This document shows, in pieces, positions 17,069 to 29,849 of a stretch of 36,750 nt of DNA. The translations under genes were made by a program, and so were the position numbers. Each line of letters begins with the position of its first letter. The first letter of the stretch is position 1. Source of the DNA: Candidatus Adlerbacteria bacterium (lineage in GTDB: Bacteria; Patescibacteriota; Minisyncoccia; Phycocordibacterales; SBAW01); the NCBI GenBank assembly GCA_043734325.1, contig JAYTFN010000017.1, positions 1 to 36,750 on the forward strand, in the 5' to 3' direction. The notes beneath the pieces were generated by a model. It did not search any database, had not been told where the DNA came from, and was given only the letters and a program-made list of their open reading frames with translations.

Positions 17069-17485
17069 ATGGAGTGGACAGAGGAACAAGTCGCCCTCCT
17101 GAAGGTTTTATGGCCGAAGAGCCTCTCGGCTACTGAAATAGGCAAACAGCTAGGCGTAACTAAAAATGCTATTATAAGTAAGGGAGGGCGACTTGGTCTA
17201 CCCCCTCGCCCCTCACCCAAAAGGAGAAGGTCACATACTACATACAGAGCGCCTACTCTGACCCGACTCTCGAATAAGGCAGTAACATTTTCTGCAATGG
17301 GCCCGGGAGCCGTTCATGAACTAGCAGTAGGTCGACCATCCGTCCGAAAGCCTGAACTTTGTTGCTGGCCTATAGGAGATCCTGGTACTAAAAGTTTCCA
17401 CAGTTGCAAGGCCACGGCTGAACCAAGAAAACCTTATTGCACAGAACATCAAGCGGAGGCGCATCTACAAAAACCTAAGGGTTGA
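17069..17485 (+). CDS. GcrA-like cell-cycle regulator family protein
   Basis: N-terminal W-TEEQVALLKVLW...SATEIGKQLGVTKNAIISKGGRLGL HTH; C-terminal CCWPIGDPGTKSFHSC...PYCTEH Cys-rich motif. Both are hallmarks of GcrA. Confidence 0.7.
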   Translation: MEWTEEQVALLKVLWPKSLSATEIGKQLGVTKNAIISKGGRLGLPPRPSPKRRRSHTTYRAPTLTRLSNKAVTFSAMGPGAVHELAVGRPSVRKPELCCWPIGDPGTKSFHSCKATAEPRKPYCTEHQAEAHLQKPKG

Positions 17486-17538: not shown

Positions 17539-17637
17539 TAATTTCTAATCAATTCAAAAGTACTAACCTAGAAGAAATGGTAAATTTCGCTTAAAAAGTG
17601 TATTGTAATTTTCATTAGAGGCCACAAACCTTTATAT

Positions 17638-17722
17638 GGAGGAGTGGCAGAGTGGTCTAACGCACCGCACTTGAAATGCGGCGTGCCGCAAGGTACCGTG
17701 AGTTCGAATCTCACCTCCTCCG
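17638..17722 (+). tRNA. tRNA-Ser (anticodon UGA), long variable arm
   Basis: Acceptor GGAGGAG/CTCCTCC; anticodon arm CCGCA-CTTGAAA-TGCGG; variable arm GTGCC-GCAA-GGTAC; T-arm GTGAG-TTCGAAT-CTCAC. Confidence 0.9.
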
Positions 17723-17746
17723 CCCGATGTCCAAGCTTGAACCCAA

Positions 17747-17802: not shown

Positions 17803-18351
17803 CTACTTATAAAATAACTCGTGATTACGAAGCTCTTTTTTTATATCTAAATAATTAGGGAGGGCTTTCTCCACAAGCGCCCAGAATTTTTTTGAATGAT
17901 TAAATTCTTTAAGATGGCATATTTCATGGACAATAATATAGTCACGATGTTTTTGTGGTAGAAATACAATTTTGTAATTAAAATTTAGATTTTGTTTGCA
18001 CGAACAGCTACCCCAACAAGTCTTTTGATTTTTAATAAAGATATTGTTAAACGAAAAACCATATACTTTGTTATAAACCCTAACCCGGTTCTGCACGAGA
18101 GCAAGAGCTTTGTCCTTGTTTTCCAAATAGTCTTTATGCGAGAAAGTACGGATAGCTTTGCTGTCCACGCTCTTAAAAAAGAGTATTTTGTCCCACACCC
18201 ACTGTTTTTTATCAGCAAGAAACTTCTCAACGATTGATAGTTCGACCCCGAAAGGGGTAGTCACTATTACACTGCCGTCACAATACACCGCAAGACGCAT
18301 TCGTTTTGCTCTTTTGCTCCTTTTAAGTTTATAAGAGATTTTCTTTTCCAT
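17803..18351 (-). CDS. DUF45/YgjP-like (M48-type) zinc metallopeptidase
   Basis: WGSCSCKQNLNFNYK...DYIIVHEICHLKEFNHSKKFW with an HExxH motif. It starts 17 nt downstream of hsdR. Confidence 0.8.
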   Translation of the reverse strand: MEKKISYKLKRSKRAKRMRLAVYCDGSVIVTTPFGVELSIVEKFLADKKQWVWDKILFFKSVDSKAIRTFSHKDYLENKDKALALVQNRVRVYNKVYGFSFNNIFIKNQKTCWGSCSCKQNLNFNYKIVFLPQKHRDYIIVHEICHLKEFNHSKKFWALVEKALPNYLDIKKELRNHELFYK

Positions 18352-18368
18352 ACTATATATTTTTCTTG

Positions 18369-21284
18369 CTAGAATTTCTTAGTGATGATGTCTACCAGTC
18401 TATTTAAGAATTTTGGAAAATCTTTTACAGTAAACCGACCTTTATAATCGCGCAGAATCAGTTCTTGCAAGGTTTGTTTAATATCTTTAACAAACACATC
18501 TCGCTTTGAGGATTCCTGCCACCCACTATCCAGGTCGTCCTCAATTCGATTTCGAAGTTCTTTAACAAATTCCTTAACTTCATCATCCTTGCCTCCATTA
18601 ATAAATTCCTGCGAGATAACATAAAGCGCATATTCTTTCAAATCAAGTCCTAAATCTTTTGCCTCATTTCCCTTTGTCTTGATATCACTCATTAATTCCT
18701 CATACCGACGGATTCTTTCCGCAAGGTCAATCTGATTTTGTTCAAACTCGCGACGAATAGCAGTTAGCCGTTCGCTAAATTTTTGATATGCAGGATTTTC
18801 ATCAAGATTGATTGAGATCTCTTGTTTGAGCATTTTCTCAAGATTCAGCGCCTTTTCCTCGTCATCCATCCCCTTGAGTCGCTCAAGTGTGTACAAATCA
18901 TTCACGCGTAGTTCGCGGAAATTCTTTGTAATTCCTTCGAAATCAATGATAGTGCTCTTTTGGATAAGCTCGCGGACTTTCTCGCCGTATTCTTCAAGTA
19001 AATATCGATCATCCTCGCTTCGAAATTCCTTCAAAAATGCCAAGTAAAAACTTGTCACCCATTCAAAAGGGCGAATGTATTGCTTCAAGTACGGATCAGG
19101 CGAAAGAAACTCAAACAAGCTCTTGAGCTTCATATACTTCTCAACAAAGTATTTCTGTTTGTCTTGATTATCAATGAAAATCTTTAAACATCGGCGAAGA
19201 TTATCCATTGATGGATCTTCGATATTTACGCCCGTAAATATTTTCATTACATCGCTCAAAACATCAGAAAATCTTGCCTTCACTCGCTCAATATCTATCA
19301 TCGCCGAATCAACGACATCCTCGTCAAAATCAAGAGCGTCATATAAATTTCGCGTAATTCCGTAGTAGTCGATAATTTTCCCTGCTTCCTTGTTTTTATA
19401 AACACGATTCGTGCGCGCAATCGCTTGCAAGAGATTATGATCGCGAAGCGGCTTATCGAGATACATCACTTGTTCAATTGGAGCATCGAAACCTGTGAGC
19501 AACATGTCGCAGACTAAAAGAAACTTCAAAGAAGATTTTGGGTCTTTGAATCGCTCAATAATCTGTTCGCGTTCACGCTTGCTCGTGTTATATGCTTTCA
19601 AATCATCCGCATCGCTATTTGGATCTCCGGGAGAATACACCACAGCCGACCATTCGGATGGTATGAGTTTATCGAGTAATTTCTTATACGTTGCCACGGC
19701 TTCGCGGTCATACGCCACGACCTGCGCCTTGAAGCCATTTGGCTCCACATAGAGCTTGTAATGCTCCACAATGTCCCTTGCGACAGCTTCCATGCGTTTG
19801 GGTAGCTTAACGAGCGCCGCCTTTTTACCGTATTTCCTTATAAGTTCAGTCTTTTGCTTGTCGGACAAATCTCCTGCTATTTCTTCAAACTGCTGATCGA
19901 GCTTTTCTTCGTCAATAGAAAACTTCGAAAGTCGAGCTTCATACGTCACCGGTATTGTCGCTCCATCATCAATCGCTTCTTGGATAGAGTAGTAGTCAAG
20001 ATATCTCTTTCCTTCACCTTCATAATTTCGAAAAGTGTTCGTATGCGCCTTATCAACAGGCGTTCCAGTAAACCCGAAGAAAAATGCTTTTTTGAACGCA
20101 TTTCGCATATTAATACCCGACACGCCCTCATCGCCGCGATGAGCTTCATCAGAAAGAATAATTACGTTTTCATCGAGATTCTCCACTTTGTCGCCAAGTT
20201 CCGAGAACTTTTGAATAGTGGTGATAAATATACCCTTTTCCGATGATTGTATTTTTTCTTCCAGATCCTTCCGTGAGGTTACCCGAACGATGTTCTTCCC
20301 TCCTGCATTAGTAAAAGTCTCAAATATCTGGTCGTCCAAGTCCACACGATCAACCAAAATAAATACTTTCGGATTGGCGAGAGCTTTGTTGAAGCGGAGC
20401 TTCCACGCGGTGAAATACATCGTGAGCGTCTTGCCAGATCCTTGCGTGTGCCAGATAAGTCCTTGGCGTTTTTCCTTCATCACTACACGCTCCACAATCT
20501 TGTTTGTTGCCCGCATCTGCTGATAGCGAGCCATTTTCTTCACTAGTTTTTCTTTTTCCTTTTCAAACAAAATAAAGTTTTGGACAATATCTAAAAAGTT
20601 TCCTTTAGACAAAAGTGAGAAAAGTATCATCTCAAGCTCTCCACCAAGTTCTTTTTCAATATCTTCATCTCTCCATTGGAGGAAGTACTGTTTGGGCGCG
20701 CCCGTGGCACCATAGACTGTTTTAAGGCCATCACTCGCGATGTTAAAACAGTTTGGAATAAATAGTTTCCGAGCTACTTTTTCGTATCTCTTTATTTGAT
20801 CAATCCCGTTTTCAAAACTCACTCCGAGAGAGGCAGTTGGGCTCTTTGCTTCAATATCCACAAGAGGAAGCCCGTTCACAAAAATCATTATATCTGGCCG
20901 GATATTTTCTGTATCCCCTTCGAAATAGAATTGATTGGTAACAACAAATTGGTTATTCTCCGGATTGTCAAAATCAAGTAGTTTATAGTCATGCTTTCTC
21001 CCAGTGACAGAATTTTTGAGGTTAATTCCATCTCTTAGCGCTTTCAAAAAAGCTTCGTTATTATCAATTTTCCTAACTTCATGAAGGACACTTTTTACCT
21101 CGCTATCGTTTGCGGTTGGATTGAGTGTGCTAATAGCTTTCTCTAAAAGAGAAGTGACGATGTATTCACTCTCAAGATCACGAAGTTTTGCAAATTCCTC
21201 CGGCTTTATGTACTGAAACCCGAGCTTATCTTTAATAAACTTAATGATGTAATTTTCTACTGTATATTGTTCGTTGAATTTCAT
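18369..21284 (-). CDS. hsdR: Type I restriction enzyme R subunit
   Basis: HSDR_N-like N-terminus; helicase motif I HTQGSGKTLTM; DEAH box LSDEAHRG; motif VI QAIARTNR; 971 aa. Confidence 0.92.
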   Translation of the reverse strand: MKFNEQYTVENYIIKFIKDKLGFQYIKPEEFAKLRDLESEYIVTSLLEKAISTLNPTANDSEVKSVLHEVRKIDNNEAFLKALRDGINLKNSVTGRKHDYKLLDFDNPENNQFVVTNQFYFEGDTENIRPDIMIFVNGLPLVDIEAKSPTASLGVSFENGIDQIKRYEKVARKLFIPNCFNIASDGLKTVYGATGAPKQYFLQWRDEDIEKELGGELEMILFSLLSKGNFLDIVQNFILFEKEKEKLVKKMARYQQMRATNKIVERVVMKEKRQGLIWHTQGSGKTLTMYFTAWKLRFNKALANPKVFILVDRVDLDDQIFETFTNAGGKNIVRVTSRKDLEEKIQSSEKGIFITTIQKFSELGDKVENLDENVIILSDEAHRGDEGVSGINMRNAFKKAFFFGFTGTPVDKAHTNTFRNYEGEGKRYLDYYSIQEAIDDGATIPVTYEARLSKFSIDEEKLDQQFEEIAGDLSDKQKTELIRKYGKKAALVKLPKRMEAVARDIVEHYKLYVEPNGFKAQVVAYDREAVATYKKLLDKLIPSEWSAVVYSPGDPNSDADDLKAYNTSKREREQIIERFKDPKSSLKFLLVCDMLLTGFDAPIEQVMYLDKPLRDHNLLQAIARTNRVYKNKEAGKIIDYYGITRNLYDALDFDEDVVDSAMIDIERVKARFSDVLSDVMKIFTGVNIEDPSMDNLRRCLKIFIDNQDKQKYFVEKYMKLKSLFEFLSPDPYLKQYIRPFEWVTSFYLAFLKEFRSEDDRYLLEEYGEKVRELIQKSTIIDFEGITKNFRELRVNDLYTLERLKGMDDEEKALNLEKMLKQEISINLDENPAYQKFSERLTAIRREFEQNQIDLAERIRRYEELMSDIKTKGNEAKDLGLDLKEYALYVISQEFINGGKDDEVKEFVKELRNRIEDDLDSGWQESSKRDVFVKDIKQTLQELILRDYKGRFTVKDFPKFLNRLVDIITKKF

Positions 21285-21389: not shown

Positions 21390-22244
21390 TCAAACCTGAG
21401 CTTGCTCAGGTTTTTTGCTGCTTGAGTCATCAAAACAACTATATTTTATGCCTCGGCTGGACCATTCTGATTCAGGAAGCAGTGCGTCAATAACCTTTTT
21501 GTTATTATACAATGCAACCCACGGATTATACGTTGGCTCATATTTCCTTTTCGCCATAGGATATAGATAAAGATCGGCAAGCTGCACATACAAATTTTCC
21601 TTGGTTTTACGTCGGGGTTCACCGAGTATGAGTTGCTGAAAATCAGACTGATTGAGCCCACCATATTTTTTAGAATTTTCTATATGAAACGGCATGCCAC
21701 TATGTTTCAAATCCTTTGCGTACTGAATAATAGCGCGATCCTCTTTTTTCCCAGCTCCCTCAAATCTCACGTTCAATATTCCGCCTTCATTTTGTAGATA
21801 TTTTGCAACACGTTCAATCAAAATCGAATATGCTGTTTTGCACATCAGCCACCGCTTGTCTCCATATAGTTGCTTATATCGCTCATTGTAGCCAGGTCGG
21901 TGAATCACAGTTGCAAATCCAATAACGGGTAGCGACTCAAGAAACACACTGAGTTCCTCATAGAATGTATCTCTTAATTTTGCACTACTCTTCTCTAGCC
22001 ATGCAAAATTGTCTCGCATACCGCGAATCTTGGTAGAGTGCAGTGGATAGTCTATTTTCCATTTCTTACAAAACTCAAAATATCGATCACACAGCTCGAG
22101 TTTATCAACTTCAGCAACTAAAACACCTCCCAGCGCAAAATGATCCATTCCATCGTCACGAGATTTTAAATCCAGCCCATCCGGAAGCCGTGAGCCTGAG
22201 TCGTCAATATACAAATAATACTGTTGAGCTGGTGCCTTTGTCAT
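21390..22244 (-). CDS. DUF3800-like protein (function unknown) between hsdS and hsdR
   Basis: N-terminal YLYIDDSGS acidic motif and C-terminal VQLADLYLYP motif, both typical of DUF3800. ATGA overlap with the hsdS stop. Confidence 0.65.
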   Translation of the reverse strand: MTKAPAQQYYLYIDDSGSRLPDGLDLKSRDDGMDHFALGGVLVAEVDKLELCDRYFEFCKKWKIDYPLHSTKIRGMRDNFAWLEKSSAKLRDTFYEELSVFLESLPVIGFATVIHRPGYNERYKQLYGDKRWLMCKTAYSILIERVAKYLQNEGGILNVRFEGAGKKEDRAIIQYAKDLKHSGMPFHIENSKKYGGLNQSDFQQLILGEPRRKTKENLYVQLADLYLYPMAKRKYEPTYNPWVALYNNKKVIDALLPESEWSSRGIKYSCFDDSSSKKPEQAQV

Positions 22245-23392
22245 ATTTGTACCCTTACCGATCCACTCAATAAATCCTGCATCAGACCTTTTTTGAGAAG
22301 AGTAAGTTTTGCTTTCAATTTCTTATTGACTGAAATCTTTTCATTGATACTCACCAATATTTCTGCAATCTCTCGTTGCTCTGATATTGGGGGAAGTGAG
22401 ATTGGTAATTTTTCTAATAGTTTAAGAGTTAAGAATTTAGTGGTTGAACCCACCGAAGAATCTCTTAGTTCATTCAATCGCGTATTCAATACTTCTTTAA
22501 GATATGGATAGGATAAATTATCTTCACTTTTTACGGAGATAACATAAGTTCTTTGATAAGCATCAAATTTACCATCGTAATATTTGACTGAGTATTTCCC
22601 AGCCGCGTTATTTCCAGCAAGTAAAATAGCTTCCTGGTCAAACGAATATTGATCTATTGCAAAAGTTTCTTGTGAACAAGTGAAAAACGGATATGCTCCA
22701 CCGTCTACTGCTTTATTTGAATTCAATTTTCCAGTTTTGAAAATACAAAGATCGCCCAGTTTTGATATTTTAAATTCTGAATTTCTAATCCCGCGAGTAA
22801 AGAGCTGTTGCATCAATCCACGCTTGAGCTTTTCTGTTGCCTTAATCACTTCCTGCGTCTTCGCAATATCCTCATCCACCGTCCCCAAAATCTCCGCAAT
22901 TTTTTGTTGTTCTTTTAAGATGGGTAATAAAAATTGATAGTTGGCGACGTCGTCTGAGTTTATGGCAGGATAGTTTGAACCAATTGCCTTATCAACAAGA
23001 TAATTTGTGAAATCGTCTTGCACCAAAACTTGATACGCATATCCGTGATCAATCGCTCTAGACCGAACTACACTAAATCCTGTCGAGCATAATGTACTGA
23101 CACTGTAATCGGGGACGCGACATATGCCCTTTAAATTCGGTCTCACATTTGAAATAAGAATATCGTCCTTTCTTACAAGACGGCGCGCCCTACCTGGTGC
23201 TTGCAATCCGGTAAATATTTTTAACTCTTGAATTTTGAAATCTTTGACAGAGGCAATATCGATATATTGGAAAAAATCATCGGGTGATGATTGGGGGGTT
23301 ATTTGTTCGGGGTTCACATCCAAGACATCGGCAACACGCACTTGTGTCCATCCACTCGGAATATTCTTTTGTTGTGTTGTGTTAGTTTTCAT
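22241..23392 (-). CDS. hsdS: Type I R-M specificity subunit, two target-recognition domains
   Basis: Two conserved-region repeats: LPILKEQQKIAEILGTVDEDI...LKRGLMQQLF and LPPISEQREIAEILVSINEKI...LKKGLMQDLL. I trimmed the start to the ATG at 23392, 1 nt after the stop of the upstream gene. Confidence 0.88.
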   Translation of the reverse strand: MKTNTTQQKNIPSGWTQVRVADVLDVNPEQITPQSSPDDFFQYIDIASVKDFKIQELKIFTGLQAPGRARRLVRKDDILISNVRPNLKGICRVPDYSVSTLCSTGFSVVRSRAIDHGYAYQVLVQDDFTNYLVDKAIGSNYPAINSDDVANYQFLLPILKEQQKIAEILGTVDEDIAKTQEVIKATEKLKRGLMQQLFTRGIRNSEFKISKLGDLCIFKTGKLNSNKAVDGGAYPFFTCSQETFAIDQYSFDQEAILLAGNNAAGKYSVKYYDGKFDAYQRTYVISVKSEDNLSYPYLKEVLNTRLNELRDSSVGSTTKFLTLKLLEKLPISLPPISEQREIAEILVSINEKISVNKKLKAKLTLLKKGLMQDLLSGSVRVQI

Positions 23393-23393
23393 A

Positions 23394-24293
23394 TTATTTA
23401 CTTGAGATCCACTTAATTGAGCCAGCAATGGAAGCATTCAGGACTTGTAGGCAAATTTTTGCAGTATGCTTATCGGGTGAAAACTTTGAGACGCTTTGTT
23501 CATACGGATGAATATAGTTACGAAAGTCTCGCAGGGTATGTCCAAACTTTTTCACATCCAAACCAATTACACCGAGCTCATACGCTACATCAATAAGACC
23601 CGCCAGCTTCCAGTCCGGTAGAGGTAAAACTTTTTCCAACTTGTCTTTTGGACTGGCAGCAGCTGATTGAAACTCTTGCGGATGTTTTACTGCAATACCA
23701 AATAAAATTCCCTCTAGTATACTTCCAGCCATAATAACGGAGGACAGCGGCGCATTATGTTGTAAACATTGGCGTGACTCCAGAATGCGGTCTTTCAAAA
23801 TACTTTCTATCACTCCATCAAGACCAAGTTTTGAAATATCATTTTCTTCAAAATCTTTTTTCAAAAACTCTTCCTCGGAATCAGTGGGTGCATTTTTTAT
23901 ATCTACAATCGGATTCAATGATTCCTTTAGAGAAACTATGATCGGATCACGACCTTGAAAGATAACACTCATATTTTCCATAAATAAAATATCATTCATC
24001 GCCTTTACAGCTATCACTAATTTCGTCCTGTCTGCTTTGTATTCTCTTATGTCAACAAGCCTCAAAATTACTTTTTCGAGATCGTCGAATGTTAACTGCT
24101 TGAGCAACTCAAGCACCCACCATTTTCGTGTGCTCCCGTCGTGAGTTGCACTAATATTGATATTTTGAAAAAAACGAGTTAAATAACCTGAAGATCTATA
24201 CTCAGGATACTTTCCGGCTTCATCTCCACAAATAAAATCAGCAAGTGCGTCGAGCGTGGAGGGGTCTAATCTATTTTTTAAATATCTCGCCAT
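23394..24293 (-). CDS. Uncharacterised protein. The C-terminal half is HEPN-like (putative RNase) and the N-terminal domain is unknown.
   Basis: 299 aa. The C-terminal helical region ESRQCLQHNAPLSSVIMAGSILEGILFG ... LIDVAYELGVI ... LRDFRNYIHP contains an R-x6-H / RN..H motif (DNA 23508-23531) that fits the HEPN Rx4-6H signature. The gene is wedged between hsdM and hsdS with 1-nt spacers on both sides. Confidence 0.6.
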   Translation of the reverse strand: MARYLKNRLDPSTLDALADFICGDEAGKYPEYRSSGYLTRFFQNINISATHDGSTRKWWVLELLKQLTFDDLEKVILRLVDIREYKADRTKLVIAVKAMNDILFMENMSVIFQGRDPIIVSLKESLNPIVDIKNAPTDSEEEFLKKDFEENDISKLGLDGVIESILKDRILESRQCLQHNAPLSSVIMAGSILEGILFGIAVKHPQEFQSAAASPKDKLEKVLPLPDWKLAGLIDVAYELGVIGLDVKKFGHTLRDFRNYIHPYEQSVSKFSPDKHTAKICLQVLNASIAGSIKWISSK

Positions 24294-24294
24294 A

Positions 24295-26004
24295 CTAATA
24301 TTTCAACCCCTTCAAATACCTCTCGACCTTCTTATCAATCGCTTCTCGCTCTTTTTCAATTTCTTTCACTTCTGCCCACACAGTTTTTATATCAACCACC
24401 ATCTCATCTTCGCCATTTTCTACATAGCGACGAACATTGAGATTGAATTCATTTTCTTCAAGCTCTTTAACACCCACCACGCGCGCATATTTCTCAATAT
24501 CTCGATATCCCTCAAATGCTGACACTATTTTCCCAATATCCCCCTTGCGTAGGCGGTTTTGATTTTTGCCTGCTTCATAGTCTTGCTCGGCGTCGATGAT
24601 GAGAATTCTGTTCTTATGGGCTTCTGGCTTGTTTTTGTTGAATATCACAATCGCCGCCGGAATACCTGTACCGTAGAAAAGTTTTGCGGGGAGAGCAACA
24701 ATGGCCTCAATCAGGTCATTTTTGATAAGCTCCTCTCGAATACGGCCCTCGGCTCCACCGCGGAAAAGCACACCATGCGGAAGCACGATGCCAGCACGTC
24801 CGTTTTCATTCATTGACTTCACCATGTGAAGCACAAAGGCGTAGTCGGCTTTTTTTGCTGGAGGCATTTCGTATCCAGCAACTCGTCCGTATTTGTCGTG
24901 CTTAAATATCTCGTACTCCCATTCACTTATGGAGTAGGGCGGGTTTGCGACGCAAATGTCGAATGTTTTGAGCGCGCCGTCCGGGTTTAGAAACTTCGGA
25001 TCAGCGAGTGTGTCTCCGCGCTGAATATCCGCACTATCAAGTCCGTGGAGGAACATGTTTATCTTTGCAATCGCATAAGTACCGATGTTTATTTCTTGCC
25101 CATAAAGATAGAGCGAGCGGGCTTTCTTTTCCCCGGCTTCATTTTTGAGATGATGATATGCCTCCAAGAGAAAACCGCCCGAGCCAACCGCCATGTCGTA
25201 GATATGATCTTTCTCGTGGGGCTTGAGAATATTGATAACCACACGCTCAACTTCACGGGGAGTATAGAATTCTCCGCCTTTCTTGCCAGCGTCTGCCGCG
25301 AATTGCTCAATGAGGTATTCGTATGCATCTCCGAGAAGGTCAGAGCTGATGTAATTGTCGCCAAAATTGTGCTGCGAGAAGTGATTGATAAGGCGTTGGA
25401 TGGTTTCATTGGGGAATTTGTCTTTATTTGCAAAATCAAGGTCGTCAAAAATCTTGTCGAGCTTCGGGCTGTTGGCATTGGTGAGTTTATCAAAAATCTC
25501 GTTGAGCTTGTGACCGATTCCTTCCGCTTGCATCTCTACTACTTTCCATCGGCAGTCTTTTGGAACTTGAAAGCGATGATTGTGATCTGAGCGGGCAACT
25601 TCTTCGTCGTGATATACTTCAAGAACTTTTTTATATTCCTCGTCCCAGGAGTCACTGATTCGTTTGTAGAAAAGGAGTCCGAAAATATATTTCTTGTAAT
25701 CAGAGCTATCAATTTTCCCACGCAAAATGTCTGCGCTCCTCCAAAGGAATTGCTTGAGTTGGGTGAGATTCATTTTCCCTGAATCATCGGTGAGTGGAGC
25801 ATCAAAACTTTTCATAATACTTTTGTCATTTGCAATTCGCTCTATGTCTTCCGGTTTATATTTTCGATCTTTTCGTGGACCAACACGGAGTGGGGTTATG
25901 AGTCCTTTCTTCTCCCAATTACGAAGCGTGTCTTGGTGAATACCAAAAATGCTCGAAACTTCACTGATTGAGAGTAGTGCTTTTTCGTTTGATGTTTTCT
26001 TCAT
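24295..26004 (-). CDS. hsdM: Type I R-M N6-adenine DNA methyltransferase subunit with a fused N-terminal MerR/excisionase-type HTH
   Basis: AdoMet motif DMAVGSGGFL; catalytic VANPPYS; HsdM_N-like region. The first ~60 aa, LLSISEVSSIFGIHQDTLRNWEKKGLITP, form an HTH. Confidence 0.92.
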   Translation of the reverse strand: MKKTSNEKALLSISEVSSIFGIHQDTLRNWEKKGLITPLRVGPRKDRKYKPEDIERIANDKSIMKSFDAPLTDDSGKMNLTQLKQFLWRSADILRGKIDSSDYKKYIFGLLFYKRISDSWDEEYKKVLEVYHDEEVARSDHNHRFQVPKDCRWKVVEMQAEGIGHKLNEIFDKLTNANSPKLDKIFDDLDFANKDKFPNETIQRLINHFSQHNFGDNYISSDLLGDAYEYLIEQFAADAGKKGGEFYTPREVERVVINILKPHEKDHIYDMAVGSGGFLLEAYHHLKNEAGEKKARSLYLYGQEINIGTYAIAKINMFLHGLDSADIQRGDTLADPKFLNPDGALKTFDICVANPPYSISEWEYEIFKHDKYGRVAGYEMPPAKKADYAFVLHMVKSMNENGRAGIVLPHGVLFRGGAEGRIREELIKNDLIEAIVALPAKLFYGTGIPAAIVIFNKNKPEAHKNRILIIDAEQDYEAGKNQNRLRKGDIGKIVSAFEGYRDIEKYARVVGVKELEENEFNLNVRRYVENGEDEMVVDIKTVWAEVKEIEKEREAIDKKVERYLKGLKY

Positions 26005-26262: not shown

Positions 26263-26859
26263 ATGGAGCTACAACAATCAAAGTCTCTCAAAATTGGCAT
26301 TCAAGGTGGCGAGGGCAGCTTCAATGAAGAGGCGTGTCGTACCTACTGCACAGACAACGGTATTACAAACTACGAGATAGTCTACCTCTATACGTCCGAC
26401 CGAGTGCTGCGAGCACTGGAGGCACGCGCGGTTGACTTTGGTATTGCTGCTATTGAGAATTCTTTAGGCGGCCTTGTATGGGAAACAATTAACGCGTTGT
26501 CTGAGTTCGACTGTAAAATAATTACTCATTTTCAGATCGTCATTAACCATGCACTTTTAGGCGTTAGGGGCGTCACCATCTCCGAAATTGACACCATCAT
26601 GTCCCACCCGCAAGCGCTGGCACAAACCCGCGGCACGCTTGCTCGCCTGTTCCCCAATAAAAAATTAAAGAGTGGTGATGGAATACTCGTGGACCAAGCA
26701 ACTGCAGCAGCAGCGCTTGCAAAGGGAGAGCTCCCCCGCACAACTGGCGTCATAGCGTCGCACGTCTGTGCTGAGTTGTTTGGGCTCGACATCTTAACCG
26801 AAGGGCTCCAGGATATGGCACAAAACCTCACCACCTTTTTGTGGATGGAGTCTCGCTAA
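26263..26859 (+). CDS. pheA: Prephenate dehydratase catalytic (PDT) domain protein without an ACT domain
   Basis: KIGIQGGEGSFNEEA start, IENSLGG motif and SHPQALAQ motif. At 198 aa it has no C-terminal regulatory ACT domain. Confidence 0.75.
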   Translation: MELQQSKSLKIGIQGGEGSFNEEACRTYCTDNGITNYEIVYLYTSDRVLRALEARAVDFGIAAIENSLGGLVWETINALSEFDCKIITHFQIVINHALLGVRGVTISEIDTIMSHPQALAQTRGTLARLFPNKKLKSGDGILVDQATAAAALAKGELPRTTGVIASHVCAELFGLDILTEGLQDMAQNLTTFLWMESR

Positions 26860-27561: not shown

Positions 27562-27819
27562 ATGGCAAAAGAAGTTACATCAGCATTTATGAAGCCGAAG
27601 AACCTCAGCGAGGATCTTGAGGCTGTCGTTGGAAAAGGTCCGATGCCTTTTCCGGAAGTTGTGAAGAATCTTTGGGTGTACATCAAAAAGAACGAGTTGC
27701 AGAATCCGCAAAATAAACGAGAAATCGTTCCTGATGAGAAATTAGCCAAGGTTTTTGGCACCACATCAGGCGTCAACATGATGAAAATGTCGGGCCTGGT
27801 ATTCAAACACCTTTCCTAA
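27562..27819 (+). CDS. SWIB/MDM2-domain protein
   Basis: LEAVVGKGPMPFPEVVKNLWVYIKKNELQNPQNKREIVPDEKLAKVFG is the canonical SWIB pattern. The protein is an 85-aa stand-alone domain. Confidence 0.75.
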   Translation: MAKEVTSAFMKPKNLSEDLEAVVGKGPMPFPEVVKNLWVYIKKNELQNPQNKREIVPDEKLAKVFGTTSGVNMMKMSGLVFKHLS

Positions 27820-27884: not shown

Positions 27885-29171
27885 TTACTGCACCGTCCCC
27901 AGGTAGGGCAACTCAATGGTTTTTTTATGTTGTTCCGCCGACAAGGAGATAGCGCTTCTGTGGCAATGTATATTTCTTTGTTTGTCTAACTCTTGATGGT
28001 TTGTGGCTGTAAGGCTACGCGCTAAGACCACGGTTTCTTTACCATACCGTTTATTGAGAGCGTCTACCGCACGCAGTACTGAAGCGCGGTCATTGGCCAC
28101 CTTTGTCGCATCGAAAAGGTCGAGTGTAGCAACTTCTTCCCGCACGATACGGCGAAGTGAGATACCTGTTGCGCGATACAGAACATGCGGCACAAACATC
28201 CGGTCAAACTCATGCTCGACAGCCTTGAGTATTATCGAAGGGTCCGCTGTGGGAACCACTAGCACTACGTCACTATTTCGATATAAAAATTCTTGGGTTT
28301 TAAGCATTACCCCGACCTCGCCACTGCGCACCTTGGAGTGGCGAGCCTTGTCGCACGCGCGTTCAATATTTTTAGACAACTGGGCTAACACCAGTGCACG
28401 GCTTGCTGTCGGGGGCGCAAACGTGCGCGATTTAATTATCGAGCCAATGTCCCCTCGGTGCTCCAGCGTCAAAGGTTTCGTGCACCCGCCATTGAGCTCG
28501 TACCAGATTTCGCGATACGGTTTGGCTATGTGGTTACTTTGAAGCCATATCTCGTCCTTTTGTGCGAGATGAAGTGCAGTCAGTATGCCTAGTCCCTGAA
28601 ACTTCAGCGCCATAGCAGAGCCTATACCCCAAAGGTTGCCCACGGGCATAGACTCTAGAAACTGCGGAATATTTTCGCGAGCAATAGGGGTAAATCCTCC
28701 TGGCTTTCTAAACTTCGACCCAATCTTTGCCACTACTTTACTGGGACCGAGACCTACGCCAAACGTGATCCCGAGACTCAACTCCAAATCAGCCTTTATC
28801 ATCAGTGCAATATGCTCATATGACATACGGTACACCGACTCCAACCCGGTAATGTCGGCAAAGCACTCGTCGATACTATATTCTTCCACAAGAGGCGTGT
28901 AGCGCCGCACGATCGCATACATACGACGCGCATACAACGAGTACGCAGTGTAGTCGGACCGTACGACAATAACGTGGGGGCACCGTTCGCAAATTTCTTT
29001 CATAGACATCCCGCGCGACAACCCCAGCCGCTTTGCTTCGATACTAAGCGATGTTGCCGCACCTCGCTCGGCTCCGGTTATAACGGGTAACCCTCGAAGC
29101 TTGTGGTTCATTGTTTGTTCAACGGAAGCAAAGAAAGAGTCGCCGTCAAAGTGGAGTATTACGCGCTGCAT
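27885..29171 (-). CDS. Y-family translesion DNA polymerase (UmuC/DinB-like)
   Basis: ILHFDGDSFFASVEQ and YSIDECFADITG catalytic motifs; 428 aa. Confidence 0.88.
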   Translation of the reverse strand: MQRVILHFDGDSFFASVEQTMNHKLRGLPVITGAERGAATSLSIEAKRLGLSRGMSMKEICERCPHVIVVRSDYTAYSLYARRMYAIVRRYTPLVEEYSIDECFADITGLESVYRMSYEHIALMIKADLELSLGITFGVGLGPSKVVAKIGSKFRKPGGFTPIARENIPQFLESMPVGNLWGIGSAMALKFQGLGILTALHLAQKDEIWLQSNHIAKPYREIWYELNGGCTKPLTLEHRGDIGSIIKSRTFAPPTASRALVLAQLSKNIERACDKARHSKVRSGEVGVMLKTQEFLYRNSDVVLVVPTADPSIILKAVEHEFDRMFVPHVLYRATGISLRRIVREEVATLDLFDATKVANDRASVLRAVDALNKRYGKETVVLARSLTATNHQELDKQRNIHCHRSAISLSAEQHKKTIELPYLGTVQ

Positions 29172-29174
29172 ATA

Positions 29175-29753
29175 TTACGTATACTTGCGGAAAGTTCCCG
29201 TCACAACACCTATTACCTGCCCCTCTTTTGGATGTATGTTTGGATACTTTGGATTGGCTGCTTCTAAGTAAAACATTGTGTTTTTCTTTCTTAAATATTT
29301 GATAGTGTAGCCGTCTTCGGTGAGCGCTATCACAATGTCGCCCGGCTTGTAGTTGCCGCTTCGCTCGAAAATGACCATGTCGCCCGGTTTTATACCTGCC
29401 CCTTCCATAGAGTCACCTTCGACTTCTAAAAGAAAACTCGCGTTCTTGTCCCGTATCAAGTACTCTCCCACCGTAATTGTGTCTGCTAATTCTTCTTCGG
29501 CGGGAGAGGCGAAGCCGGCGCGCACCCGACCCACACGACGCACCTCATGCAGGAGACTTGTAGGCACGAGCTTGCCGCTCGCGTCTTTCTCAACAATTCC
29601 CTCTTTCACCAATTGTTCGACCACATAGAACGCCGAGGAGCGCGACGAAAACCTGCACAGTGTCATGATTTCCGAAATATTCGGCATACGTTTGCGCCCG
29701 CGAAAAAATTTCAGAACCGCCGCTCGGTATTCTTCTTTCATACACATAAGCAT
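29175..29753 (-). CDS. lexA: LexA-like repressor (winged HTH + S24 autopeptidase)
   Basis: Ala-Gly cleavage site VRAGF, catalytic Ser in GDSMEG and Lys in IKYLRKK. The ORF track extends the start to 29792. I prefer an internal ATG (29753, 29747 or 29741) because the LexA box sits at 29756-29771. Confidence 0.8.
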   Translation of the reverse strand: MLMCMKEEYRAAVLKFFRGRKRMPNISEIMTLCRFSSRSSAFYVVEQLVKEGIVEKDASGKLVPTSLLHEVRRVGRVRAGFASPAEEELADTITVGEYLIRDKNASFLLEVEGDSMEGAGIKPGDMVIFERSGNYKPGDIVIALTEDGYTIKYLRKKNTMFYLEAANPKYPNIHPKEGQVIGVVTGTFRKYT

Positions 29754-29755
29754 AC

Positions 29756-29771
29756 TCGAACATTTGTTCGA
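29756..29771. promoter_or_regulatory. SOS (Cheo-type) box TCGAAC-ATTT-GTTCGA
   Basis: Perfect 6+6 palindrome. It matches the Gram-positive/actinobacterial LexA consensus CGAAC-N4-GTTCG and sits directly 5-prime of the lexA-like gene. Confidence 0.65.
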
Positions 29772-29849
29772 TACCAAGTCCCGCTTGTACATATCTGTCT
29801 AATAAGTCGTTTTTACTGCTCGACCAATATTTGAGGTGTATAATTCTAT

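Follow-up and report, generated by a model that had tools for sequence, protein, structure and literature searches.

A candidate AbiJ-NTD1/HEPN-type abortive infection protein encoded between hsdM and hsdS of a type I restriction-modification operon

Why should a type I restriction-modification (R-M) operon carry an additional gene between its methylase and specificity genes, and what might that gene encode? The question arises in a 36,750-nucleotide stretch of a Candidatus Adlerbacteria genome (contig JAYTFN010000017.1; hereafter, the window), where a 299-codon open reading frame (ORF; 23394-24293, minus strand), here called T, lies between hsdM and hsdS. An initial annotation, made from the letters of the sequence, had described T as a HEPN-like protein in a PrrC-like position and a possible R-M-guarded toxin. 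The 299-amino-acid ORF and the peptides quoted from it (VIMAGSILEGILFGIAV, LIDVAYELGVI, and LRDFRNYIHP) are present as claimed, and the position between hsdM and hsdS is borne out by the Pfam families of the two neighbors, N6_Mtase and Methylase_S. The product joins an AbiJ-NTD1-like N-terminal domain to a DUF4145-like HEPN C-terminal module, and we think it fairly probable that T is an autonomous sensor-plus-HEPN abortive infection ribonuclease (RNase) that is coexpressed with the R-M system as a second line of defense.

Domain architecture of the nested protein

Homologs of T were found in 3250 protein clusters at an E value of ≤1e-3, full length at about 300 amino acids, approximately 50% identical and nearly all unnamed, and the ORF is thus real and not a chance reading frame. 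Judged from these searches, T belongs to a large, unnamed family. Relatives occur in no fewer than 586 species-level genomes, spread over many phyla, and 24 plasmid records carry one, all of them annotated as "hypothetical protein" or not annotated; no homolog was found in the phage genomes searched.

The AlphaFold2 model of T, with a predicted local distance difference test (pLDDT) score of 84.7, consists of an N-terminal domain, a linker, and an all-helical C-terminal module. The N-terminal domain (residues 1 to 122; 23928-24293, minus strand) is built from six helices and a beta-hairpin. The linker (residues ~123 to 137; 23883-23927, minus strand) is variable, with pLDDT values of 54 to 61 that fall below 50 for residues 133 to 137, and it coincides with gappy, unalignable columns in an alignment of 29 sequences (A1). 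The C-terminal HEPN-like module (residues ~138 to 299; 23397-23882, minus strand) begins with the conserved E140-x2-F143-L144 and contains helices spanning residues 160 to 178, 183 to 203, 230 to 240, 245 to 259, and 275 to 298; its start near residue 138 was set by relatives that match residues ~136 to 291 alone. The initial annotation had proposed a HEPN module of ~135 residues preceded by ~160 residues that might act as a sensor. The HEPN-like character of the former is supported by Pfam, Foldseek, and the motif, and the separate sensor- or adaptor-type nature of the latter is supported by domain fusions, but neither limit stood: the conserved module begins near residue 138 rather than 165, and the N-terminal domain ends at residue 122.

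The putative catalytic motif, R255-D-F-R258-N259-Y-I-H262-P263 (23505-23531, minus strand), had been read as R-x6-H with an internal RN, and that reading proved to describe the entire family. R255, R258, N259, H262, and P263 are invariant in alignments A1 and A3, and the core R-x2-R-N-x2-H-P was found in all 79 species-level relatives in which it was further checked. R255-x6-H262 fits the HEPN signature Rx4-6H, with the inner R258-N259 and R-N-x2-H invariant. Other invariant positions of the C-terminal module are R169, E172, G190, S191, L193, E194, and G195, and those of the N-terminal domain are C22, G23, Y32, R33, H51, D52, G53, T55, R56, and W59.

The C-terminal module is very probably a divergent DUF4145-like HEPN domain. 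DUF4145 is the sole Pfam family that recurs, matching 8 of the 29 family members and 9 of 10 members of a sister subfamily (best E values, 0.0021 to 0.0022), and every one of these matches aligns profile positions 1 to 71 with the same region and ends at the R...N...H motif. The Foldseek comparison of the T model with the PDB, a check that the initial annotation had proposed, returned hits dominated by HEPN proteins: approximately 27 of the 50 top hits are chains of the HEPN superfamily, from about 11 distinct proteins, with target-normalized template modeling (TM) scores of 0.5 to 0.67 and probabilities of up to 0.82. They include HepT/SO_3166, an Aphanizomenon HEPN toxin, HI0074, YutE, AF_0298, and TT1696, as well as the sacsin HEPN domain, MtlR, Csm6, and Cas13b.

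Several results weigh against this assignment. T itself scores 15.7 bits against DUF4145 (PF13643; E = 0.016) and its best relative scores 18.5 bits, so that T and the relatives scored all lie below the family gathering cutoff of 23.1 bits. The Foldseek E values are near 1, and the structural support for a HEPN fold is therefore only qualitative. R258-x3-H262 is shorter than Rx4-6H, which leaves R255-x6-H as the sole canonical arrangement. Nothing relevant emerged when PDB sequences were searched with a single sequence or with a profile, and an hhalign comparison of the T family with a bona fide zinc finger-plus-DUF4145 family gave a probability of 0.6%. Each individual statistic for the HEPN assignment is weak, and none is significant alone. 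A hidden Markov model of the C-terminal module run over the loci did not find a canonical DUF4145 ORF.

The sister subfamily (L068, L071, L073, L077, L078, L080, L084, and L088 to L090) has the same HEPN module at approximately 55% identity, with an invariant RDFRNYIHP, and a different N-terminal domain (MSSLxxIEKxxFEDLFGMxxGYVLxFS...). Its genes are mostly found in the slot between hsdS and hsdR and often precede genes for RhuM, AbiJ_NTD3 plus Abi_C, DUF2971, or DUF6119 proteins. The idea that its N-terminal domain is a divergent copy of that of T was rejected; hhalign reproduced the alignment made by eye with a nonsignificant E value of 0.1.

Modeled alone, the N-terminal domain of T gave a pLDDT of 88 and a predicted TM score of 0.81. 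It has no Pfam match, and Foldseek searches of the PDB and BFVD yielded no credible match for it; faint, partial winged-helix-like hits to residues ~56 to 121 were set aside. Among 1.84 billion representative proteins, the domain was recovered in 326 clusters. The HEPN module of T is absent from 110 of the top 150 of these, many of the 110 being fragments. Among 46 longer proteins with the domain, Pfam identified TIR_2 (6 proteins), CAP12-PCTIR_TIR (5), Abi_C (2, an example being P0188), Hypoth_Ymh (1), Pkinase (1), SEFIR (1), and Nuc_deoxyrib_tr (1), and in the fusion partners scanned singly the effector lies C-terminal to the N-terminal domain. Because the same domain is joined to TIR, kinase, and other effectors, the C-terminal module of T sits in what may be called the effector slot, and these fusions support the view of the N-terminal domain as a module in its own right, of sensor or adaptor type.

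The fusion spectrum also suggests what the N-terminal domain is. AbiJ-NTD1 has been described as a mostly alpha-helical domain of ~140 amino acids, unlinked to known domains, whose partners are the AbiJ, DUF4145, and Ymh HEPN domains, an STY kinase, nucleoside 2-deoxyribosyltransferase, HKD, and REase (Anantharaman et al. 2013). The N-terminal domain of T agrees with this description in size and helicity. Its AbiJ/Abi_C, Ymh, kinase, and Nuc_deoxyrib_tr partners match the list, TIR is additional, and HKD and REase were not seen among the fusions examined. The 2013 survey, in which the prototype of the domain is Bcep1808_2091 (gi 134296193), lists the AbiJ-NTD1 plus DUF4145 fusion, as gi 113972064, and no TIR fusion for NTD1, and it proposed that the N-terminal domain recognizes a phage component and the HEPN domain functions as a suicide RNase (Anantharaman et al. 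2013). The domain of T is probably AbiJ-NTD1, an identification that comes from the fusion spectrum; if T has the AbiJ-NTD1 plus DUF4145 architecture, the proposal of phage sensing and suicide would therefore apply to it.

Genomic context of T and its relatives

The operon of T is tightly packed. Upstream, hsdM (24295-26004, minus strand) encodes 569 amino acids with Pfam matches to N6_Mtase (E = 1.7e-106) and HsdM_N and an N-terminal MerR-type helix-turn-helix (HTH) domain; its TAG stop codon is followed by 1 nucleotide and the ATG of T (TAG-T-ATG). Downstream, the TAA of T is followed by 1 nucleotide and the ATG of hsdS (TAA-T-ATG). The longest ORF of hsdS (22241-23392, minus strand; two target recognition domains; Methylase_S, E = 2.9e-33, in 2 matched stretches) would begin at 23437 and overlap T by 44 nucleotides. 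N-terminal homology with the HsdS proteins of relatives (MKTNTT...; MKTN...IPKGW) places the probable start at 23392, and for that reason the overlap gives way to a junction of stop codon, 1 nucleotide, and ATG on both sides of T.

Across the family, linkage to R-M genes is a minority condition. Of 40 species-level loci flanked on each side by 3 kb or more of sequence, 10 (25%) had type I or type III R-M genes within 5 kb. The 125 immediate neighbor genes include Methylase_S (HsdS) as the commonest family, with 9 cases, followed by scattered defense and mobility genes, and no universal or obligatory partner of T was found among them. Some homologs stand by themselves, and others follow a TIR gene, are flanked by two unknown genes, adjoin a RAZR-like and HNH pair, or separate type III mod from res. 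Candidate two-gene partnerships (with TIR, with genes of 263 and 488 amino acids, or with a zinc finger-DUF4145 and HNH pair) were rejected, each being confined to one lineage.

The close relatives of T present a different picture. All 12 distinct loci in which T is at least 54% identical (the window, L011, L012, L091 to L097, L098, and L100) have it in a type I operon just after hsdM, and in 8 of the 12 it directly abuts hsdS. In L092 and L095, the T proteins are 64% identical to that of the window and the HsdM and HsdR proteins are just 28 to 36% identical, whereas other loci with an equally diverged T have R-M cores that are 61 to 77% identical to the window's. Given cores of 28 to 36% identity, the association must have been remade across type I families and not merely inherited. 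The type I linkage noted earlier for one locus is thus stronger than a single example, extending to every close relative and to unrelated type I families. T also lies directly beside hsdS at 38 to 42% identity (L058, L154, L157, L163, L164, and L175), the sister subfamily, which shares the HEPN module, occurs in operons of the order hsdM-hsdS-T-hsdR at 7 of 12 loci, and T is found between type III mod and res (L002/L003/L110 and L102) or directly upstream of mod (L041 and L087).

Several observations on individual loci accompany these counts. In L002/L003/L110, an AAA_13 ATPase gene follows, with a DUF2779 gene as well in L002. A three-gene cluster in WWE3 bacteria (L008/L009/L010/L017/L114) combines a T homolog with, just downstream, the gene for a 222-amino-acid Cys4 zinc ribbon-plus-DUF4145 protein that is RAZR-like (weak PADLOC match to PD-T7-4, E = 9.5e-4) and then an HNH nuclease gene. 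In L001/L016, the T homolog comes right after a CAP12/Pycsar-type TIR protein (PADLOC PDC-S35), with an overlap of a few nucleotides and an OLD-family ATPase nearby. The T-bearing type I operons are cargo hotspots, in keeping with the description of type I operons as hotspots for embedded defense genes (Payne et al. preprint). The slot between hsdS and hsdR holds PIN_12, Lactamase_B-like, OLD/TOPRIM AAA_15/21 ATPase, DUF3892 plus Bro-N, Fic, or unassigned genes (L011, L091 to L097, and L100), and the slot between hsdM and T holds Shedu SduA_C, NYN, or Trypco2 genes (L012, L092, L093, and L097). Defense cargo near the close relatives includes Shedu SduA_C, PIN_12, OLD/TOPRIM, Fic, NYN, and RhuM.

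Known systems and competing explanations

T resembles several characterized or predicted defense proteins. At least 16 HEPN clades have been linked to R-M systems, with an analogy to PrrC proposed for them, and the DUF4145 clade was noted to occur in operon with R-M (Anantharaman et al. 2013). T shares with that clade an all-alpha C-terminal module, the R...N...H motif, register-consistent weak matches, and the R-M operon setting, and its N-terminal domain has a size, a mostly helical content, and a partner set similar to those of the AbiJ-NTD1 plus DUF4145 architecture. It differs from the clade in scoring below the Pfam cutoff and in giving no profile-profile match to a canonical zinc finger-plus-DUF4145 family. 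The typical DUF4145 motif is spaced R-x3-N-x3-H, and the R-x3-N-x2-H of T is one residue shorter.

The R146...H154 of RAZR fits that typical spacing. RAZR, a zinc finger-plus-DUF4145 HEPN protein also known as PD-T7-4, is a single-protein abortive infection RNase; its defense requires the conserved R and H, and its activation leads to single-stranded RNA cleavage and abortive infection (PMC13017515). T is likewise small and built of two domains, an N-terminal module followed by a HEPN domain of the DUF4145 type, and both are single-gene systems that include no antitoxin; a RAZR-like gene adjoins a T homolog in the WWE3 bacteria. However, T lacks the Cys4 zinc ribbon (its N-terminal domain has a single invariant Cys), has no PADLOC match to PD-T7-4 at an E value of ≤1, and has an N-terminal domain of unrelated fold. 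Lactococcal AbiJ has the same plan of a variable N-terminal domain followed by a C-terminal HEPN domain, but the HEPN module of T is of another family, with no Pfam match to Abi_C. HEC-08, for which the HEPN histidine is needed for defense, was found by a "guilt-by-embedding" approach whose hosts were Hma, BREX, DISARM, and type I R-M operons (bioRxiv 10.1101/2024.01.29.577857). Its gene, like T, is nested in a multigene defense operon, but HEC-08 has an N-terminal DUF3644 HEPN domain and zinc finger-like domains, and T matches no PADLOC model.

PrrC is a conceptual precedent, being a HEPN-superfamily RNase encoded within an hsdMSR operon with a layered-defense logic. The gene order of EcoprrI, a type Ic system, is hsdM-hsdS-prrC-hsdR (PMC3014915). 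The PrrC-like position assigned to T in the initial annotation is consequently not the slot of PrrC, which lies between hsdS and hsdR and is held in the window by a DUF3800 gene; T lies between hsdM and hsdS. PrrC carries an N-terminal ABC-ATPase, in contrast to the 122-residue helical N-terminal domain of T, which matches no ATPase family in Pfam at an E value of ≤1. Finally, PrrC is almost exclusively R-M embedded, whereas approximately 75% of the T family is not linked to R-M.

With these comparisons in hand, we favor the autonomous, sensor-controlled RNase, in which T would work as follows. The C-terminal module would act as a divergent DUF4145-like HEPN ribonuclease. It would probably dimerize, and R255/R258, N259, and H262 would make up its metal-independent RNase site. 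In a sensory or regulatory role, the N-terminal domain would hold the RNase latent until a phage-derived cue freed it, and cleavage of tRNA, rRNA, or mRNA would then arrest translation and abort the infection. T would share a transcript with hsdM and hsdS, and the stop-N-ATG junctions on its two sides probably couple its translation to theirs; it would therefore be produced wherever the R-M system is and would travel with it. T would thus be a backup for occasions when restriction fails, with the R-M operon providing expression and cotransfer. The case for autonomy comes from distant relatives that have identical catalytic and N-terminal domain residues and neither R-M genes nor a common partner, from the service of the N-terminal domain to many other effectors, and from RAZR as a tested precedent. 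Latency is probably built into T and not imposed by R-M, since about three-quarters of the family lacks R-M and keeps the same invariant residues. Besides the weak statistics of the HEPN assignment and the unusual motif spacing, two findings count against the favored reading. T had no matches in PADLOC (at an E value of ≤1, in a library that includes the PDC models), NCBIfam, or PHROGs, and the clade of the window is strictly nested after hsdM across unrelated R-M cores, which hints at a tighter functional tie to R-M than the word autonomous implies.

Such a tie would fit a PrrC-like guard. T would be bound to the type I complex (M2S or R2M2S) with its HEPN RNase held inactive, and release would come from an anti-restriction protein (Ocr, ArdA, or Stp-like) or from stalled restriction. 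The invariable placement of close relatives after hsdM, with most of them abutting hsdS, the re-establishment of the association in the diverged cores of L092 and L095, the adjacency to hsdS seen again in distant relatives, the habit of the sister subfamily, the type III placements, and PrrC itself as a precedent for the concept all speak for such an arrangement. It has to contend with the R-M-free majority of the family, whose members keep every invariant residue with no R-M nearby and no shared partner and so must be self-restrained. T moreover has no ABC-ATPase regulatory domain and occupies a slot other than that of PrrC, its N-terminal domain is common to TIR, kinase, and other HEPN effectors, and the many unrelated cargo genes in T-bearing type I operons mean that nesting may merely reflect a permissive insertion hotspot. 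We consider the guard rather unlikely. A stronger form of the idea, confined to the clade of the window, would make T a dedicated, ATPase-independent fourth component of the type I R-M system, docked on the HsdM/HsdS core, with an RNase that is fired upon attack, for example, by DNA-mimic anti-restriction proteins. It would explain the reinsertion between hsdM and hsdS in spite of cores that are ~30% identical, and the habits of the sister subfamily and the type III loci as well. We regard it as an unlikely possibility; if it were true, the structurally unmatched N-terminal domain would represent a sensor fold not seen before, one with which TIR, kinase, and other HEPN effectors are armed as well.

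Two further explanations dispense with an antiviral RNase. T could be a selfish hitchhiker or addiction toxin, a latent toxin kept by cotransfer or by stabilizing R-M islands, and the low GC content of its island beside a tRNA-Ser gene, the recombinases and integrases near its relatives, their presence on plasmids, and the high turnover of cargo in T-bearing operons speak for this reading. Strong purifying conservation across phyla, seen in the two domains and in the catalytic motif, a neighborhood made up mainly of defense genes, and the failure to find a conserved cognate antitoxin gene among the flanking genes make this very improbable. Alternatively, T might be a noncatalytic HEPN-like protein that binds RNA or nucleotides as a regulator, or an R-M assembly factor, for example, tuning the expression or specificity of HsdS/HsdM. 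Some HEPN families, such as MtlR, are noncatalytic (Anantharaman et al. 2013); MtlR is among the Foldseek hits, the motif spacing is noncanonical, and T is wedged tightly, and is probably translationally coupled, between hsdM and hsdS. Yet invariant R, N, and H residues are what marks catalytic HEPN domains, the majority of the family lacks an R-M system that it could regulate, and the same N-terminal domain drives TIR and kinase effectors; we judge a noncatalytic role to be highly improbable.

The surrounding island and the significance of the family

The rest of the locus completes the setting of T. Six genes lie on the same strand in the order hsdM, T, hsdS, a DUF3800 gene, hsdR, and a YgjP-like gene, and hsdM, hsdS with its two target recognition domains, and hsdR are all full length, so that the type I operon is intact. 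The DUF3800 gene (21390-22244, minus strand; Pfam E = 2.7e-10), which overlaps the end of hsdS by 4 nucleotides and fills the hsdS-hsdR slot equivalent to that of PrrC, is probably a second embedded defense gene, that is, the second cargo gene of the operon; it had no match in a PADLOC scan. DUF3800 proteins have a predicted RNase H-like nuclease fold and are associated with Cas12a2-type systems (PMC10910872). hsdR (18369-21284, minus strand) encodes 971 amino acids with HSDR_N, SWI2_SNF2, T1R_D3-like, and T1RH-like_C domains. It is directly followed by the last gene of the operon, which encodes a YgjP-like M48 metallopeptidase (17803-18351, minus strand; Pfam YgjP-like, 8e-41), and a YgjP-like gene likewise comes after hsdR in L011, L091, L092, L093, L097, and L100. 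The MerR-type HTH of HsdM spans residues 12 to 58 (MerR_1, E = 2.9e-11), and the same fusion occurs in L011, L091, L093, and L097; it could allow the methylase to autoregulate the operon. Promoter and terminator scans inside the operon showed no excess over the shuffled expectation.

The R-M island, at 17.8 to 26 kb, has a GC content of 38 to 44%, compared with 46 to 50% in its flanks. It is bounded by a tRNA-Ser(TGA) gene (17637-17725) and a prephenate dehydratase gene (26263-26859), with RuvX and a GcrA-like gene flanking it on one side and the prephenate dehydratase, MarR, and SWIB genes on the other. No convincing att sites or direct repeats were found flanking the 17.5- to 26.4-kb island, and an Rfam scan of the window detected three tRNAs and nothing else. 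The GcrA-like protein is encoded at 17069-17485 (plus strand) and the SWIB gene product, a stand-alone SWIB/MDM2-domain protein, at 27562-27819 (plus strand); a gene pair at 27885-29792 (minus strand) encodes a Y-family polymerase that is UmuC-like (IMS) together with an S24 peptidase of the UmuD/LexA-like type. This mix of IMS, S24, SWIB, and GcrA-like genes sits oddly with the gammaproteobacterial label of L011, the closest contig.

The prediction that HEPN RNases encoded within R-M operons are second-line "suicide" effectors was made in 2013 (Anantharaman et al. 2013), and only a few of this kind, such as PrrC, RloC, RAZR, and HEC-08, have been tested so far. T adds to the predicted R-M-linked HEPN effectors and introduces no new principle, since the 2013 survey foresaw both R-M-linked HEPN clades and the PrrC analogy. 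The novelty lies in how large the family is, in an N-terminal domain that has no structural match and in its effector repertoire, and in a nesting between hsdM and hsdS that is specific to a clade and independent of the R-M core. The family is missing from Pfam at threshold, NCBIfam, PADLOC, and PHROGs, and its N-terminal domain turns up again in combination with TIR, kinase, and three HEPN families. Since nesting is invariable in close relatives while distant relatives that share the catalytic residues stand free, the family offers a clean test of whether nesting amounts to physical guarding. It may also represent a new single-gene defense system, and it would provide a handle on what sensors of the AbiJ-NTD type recognize.

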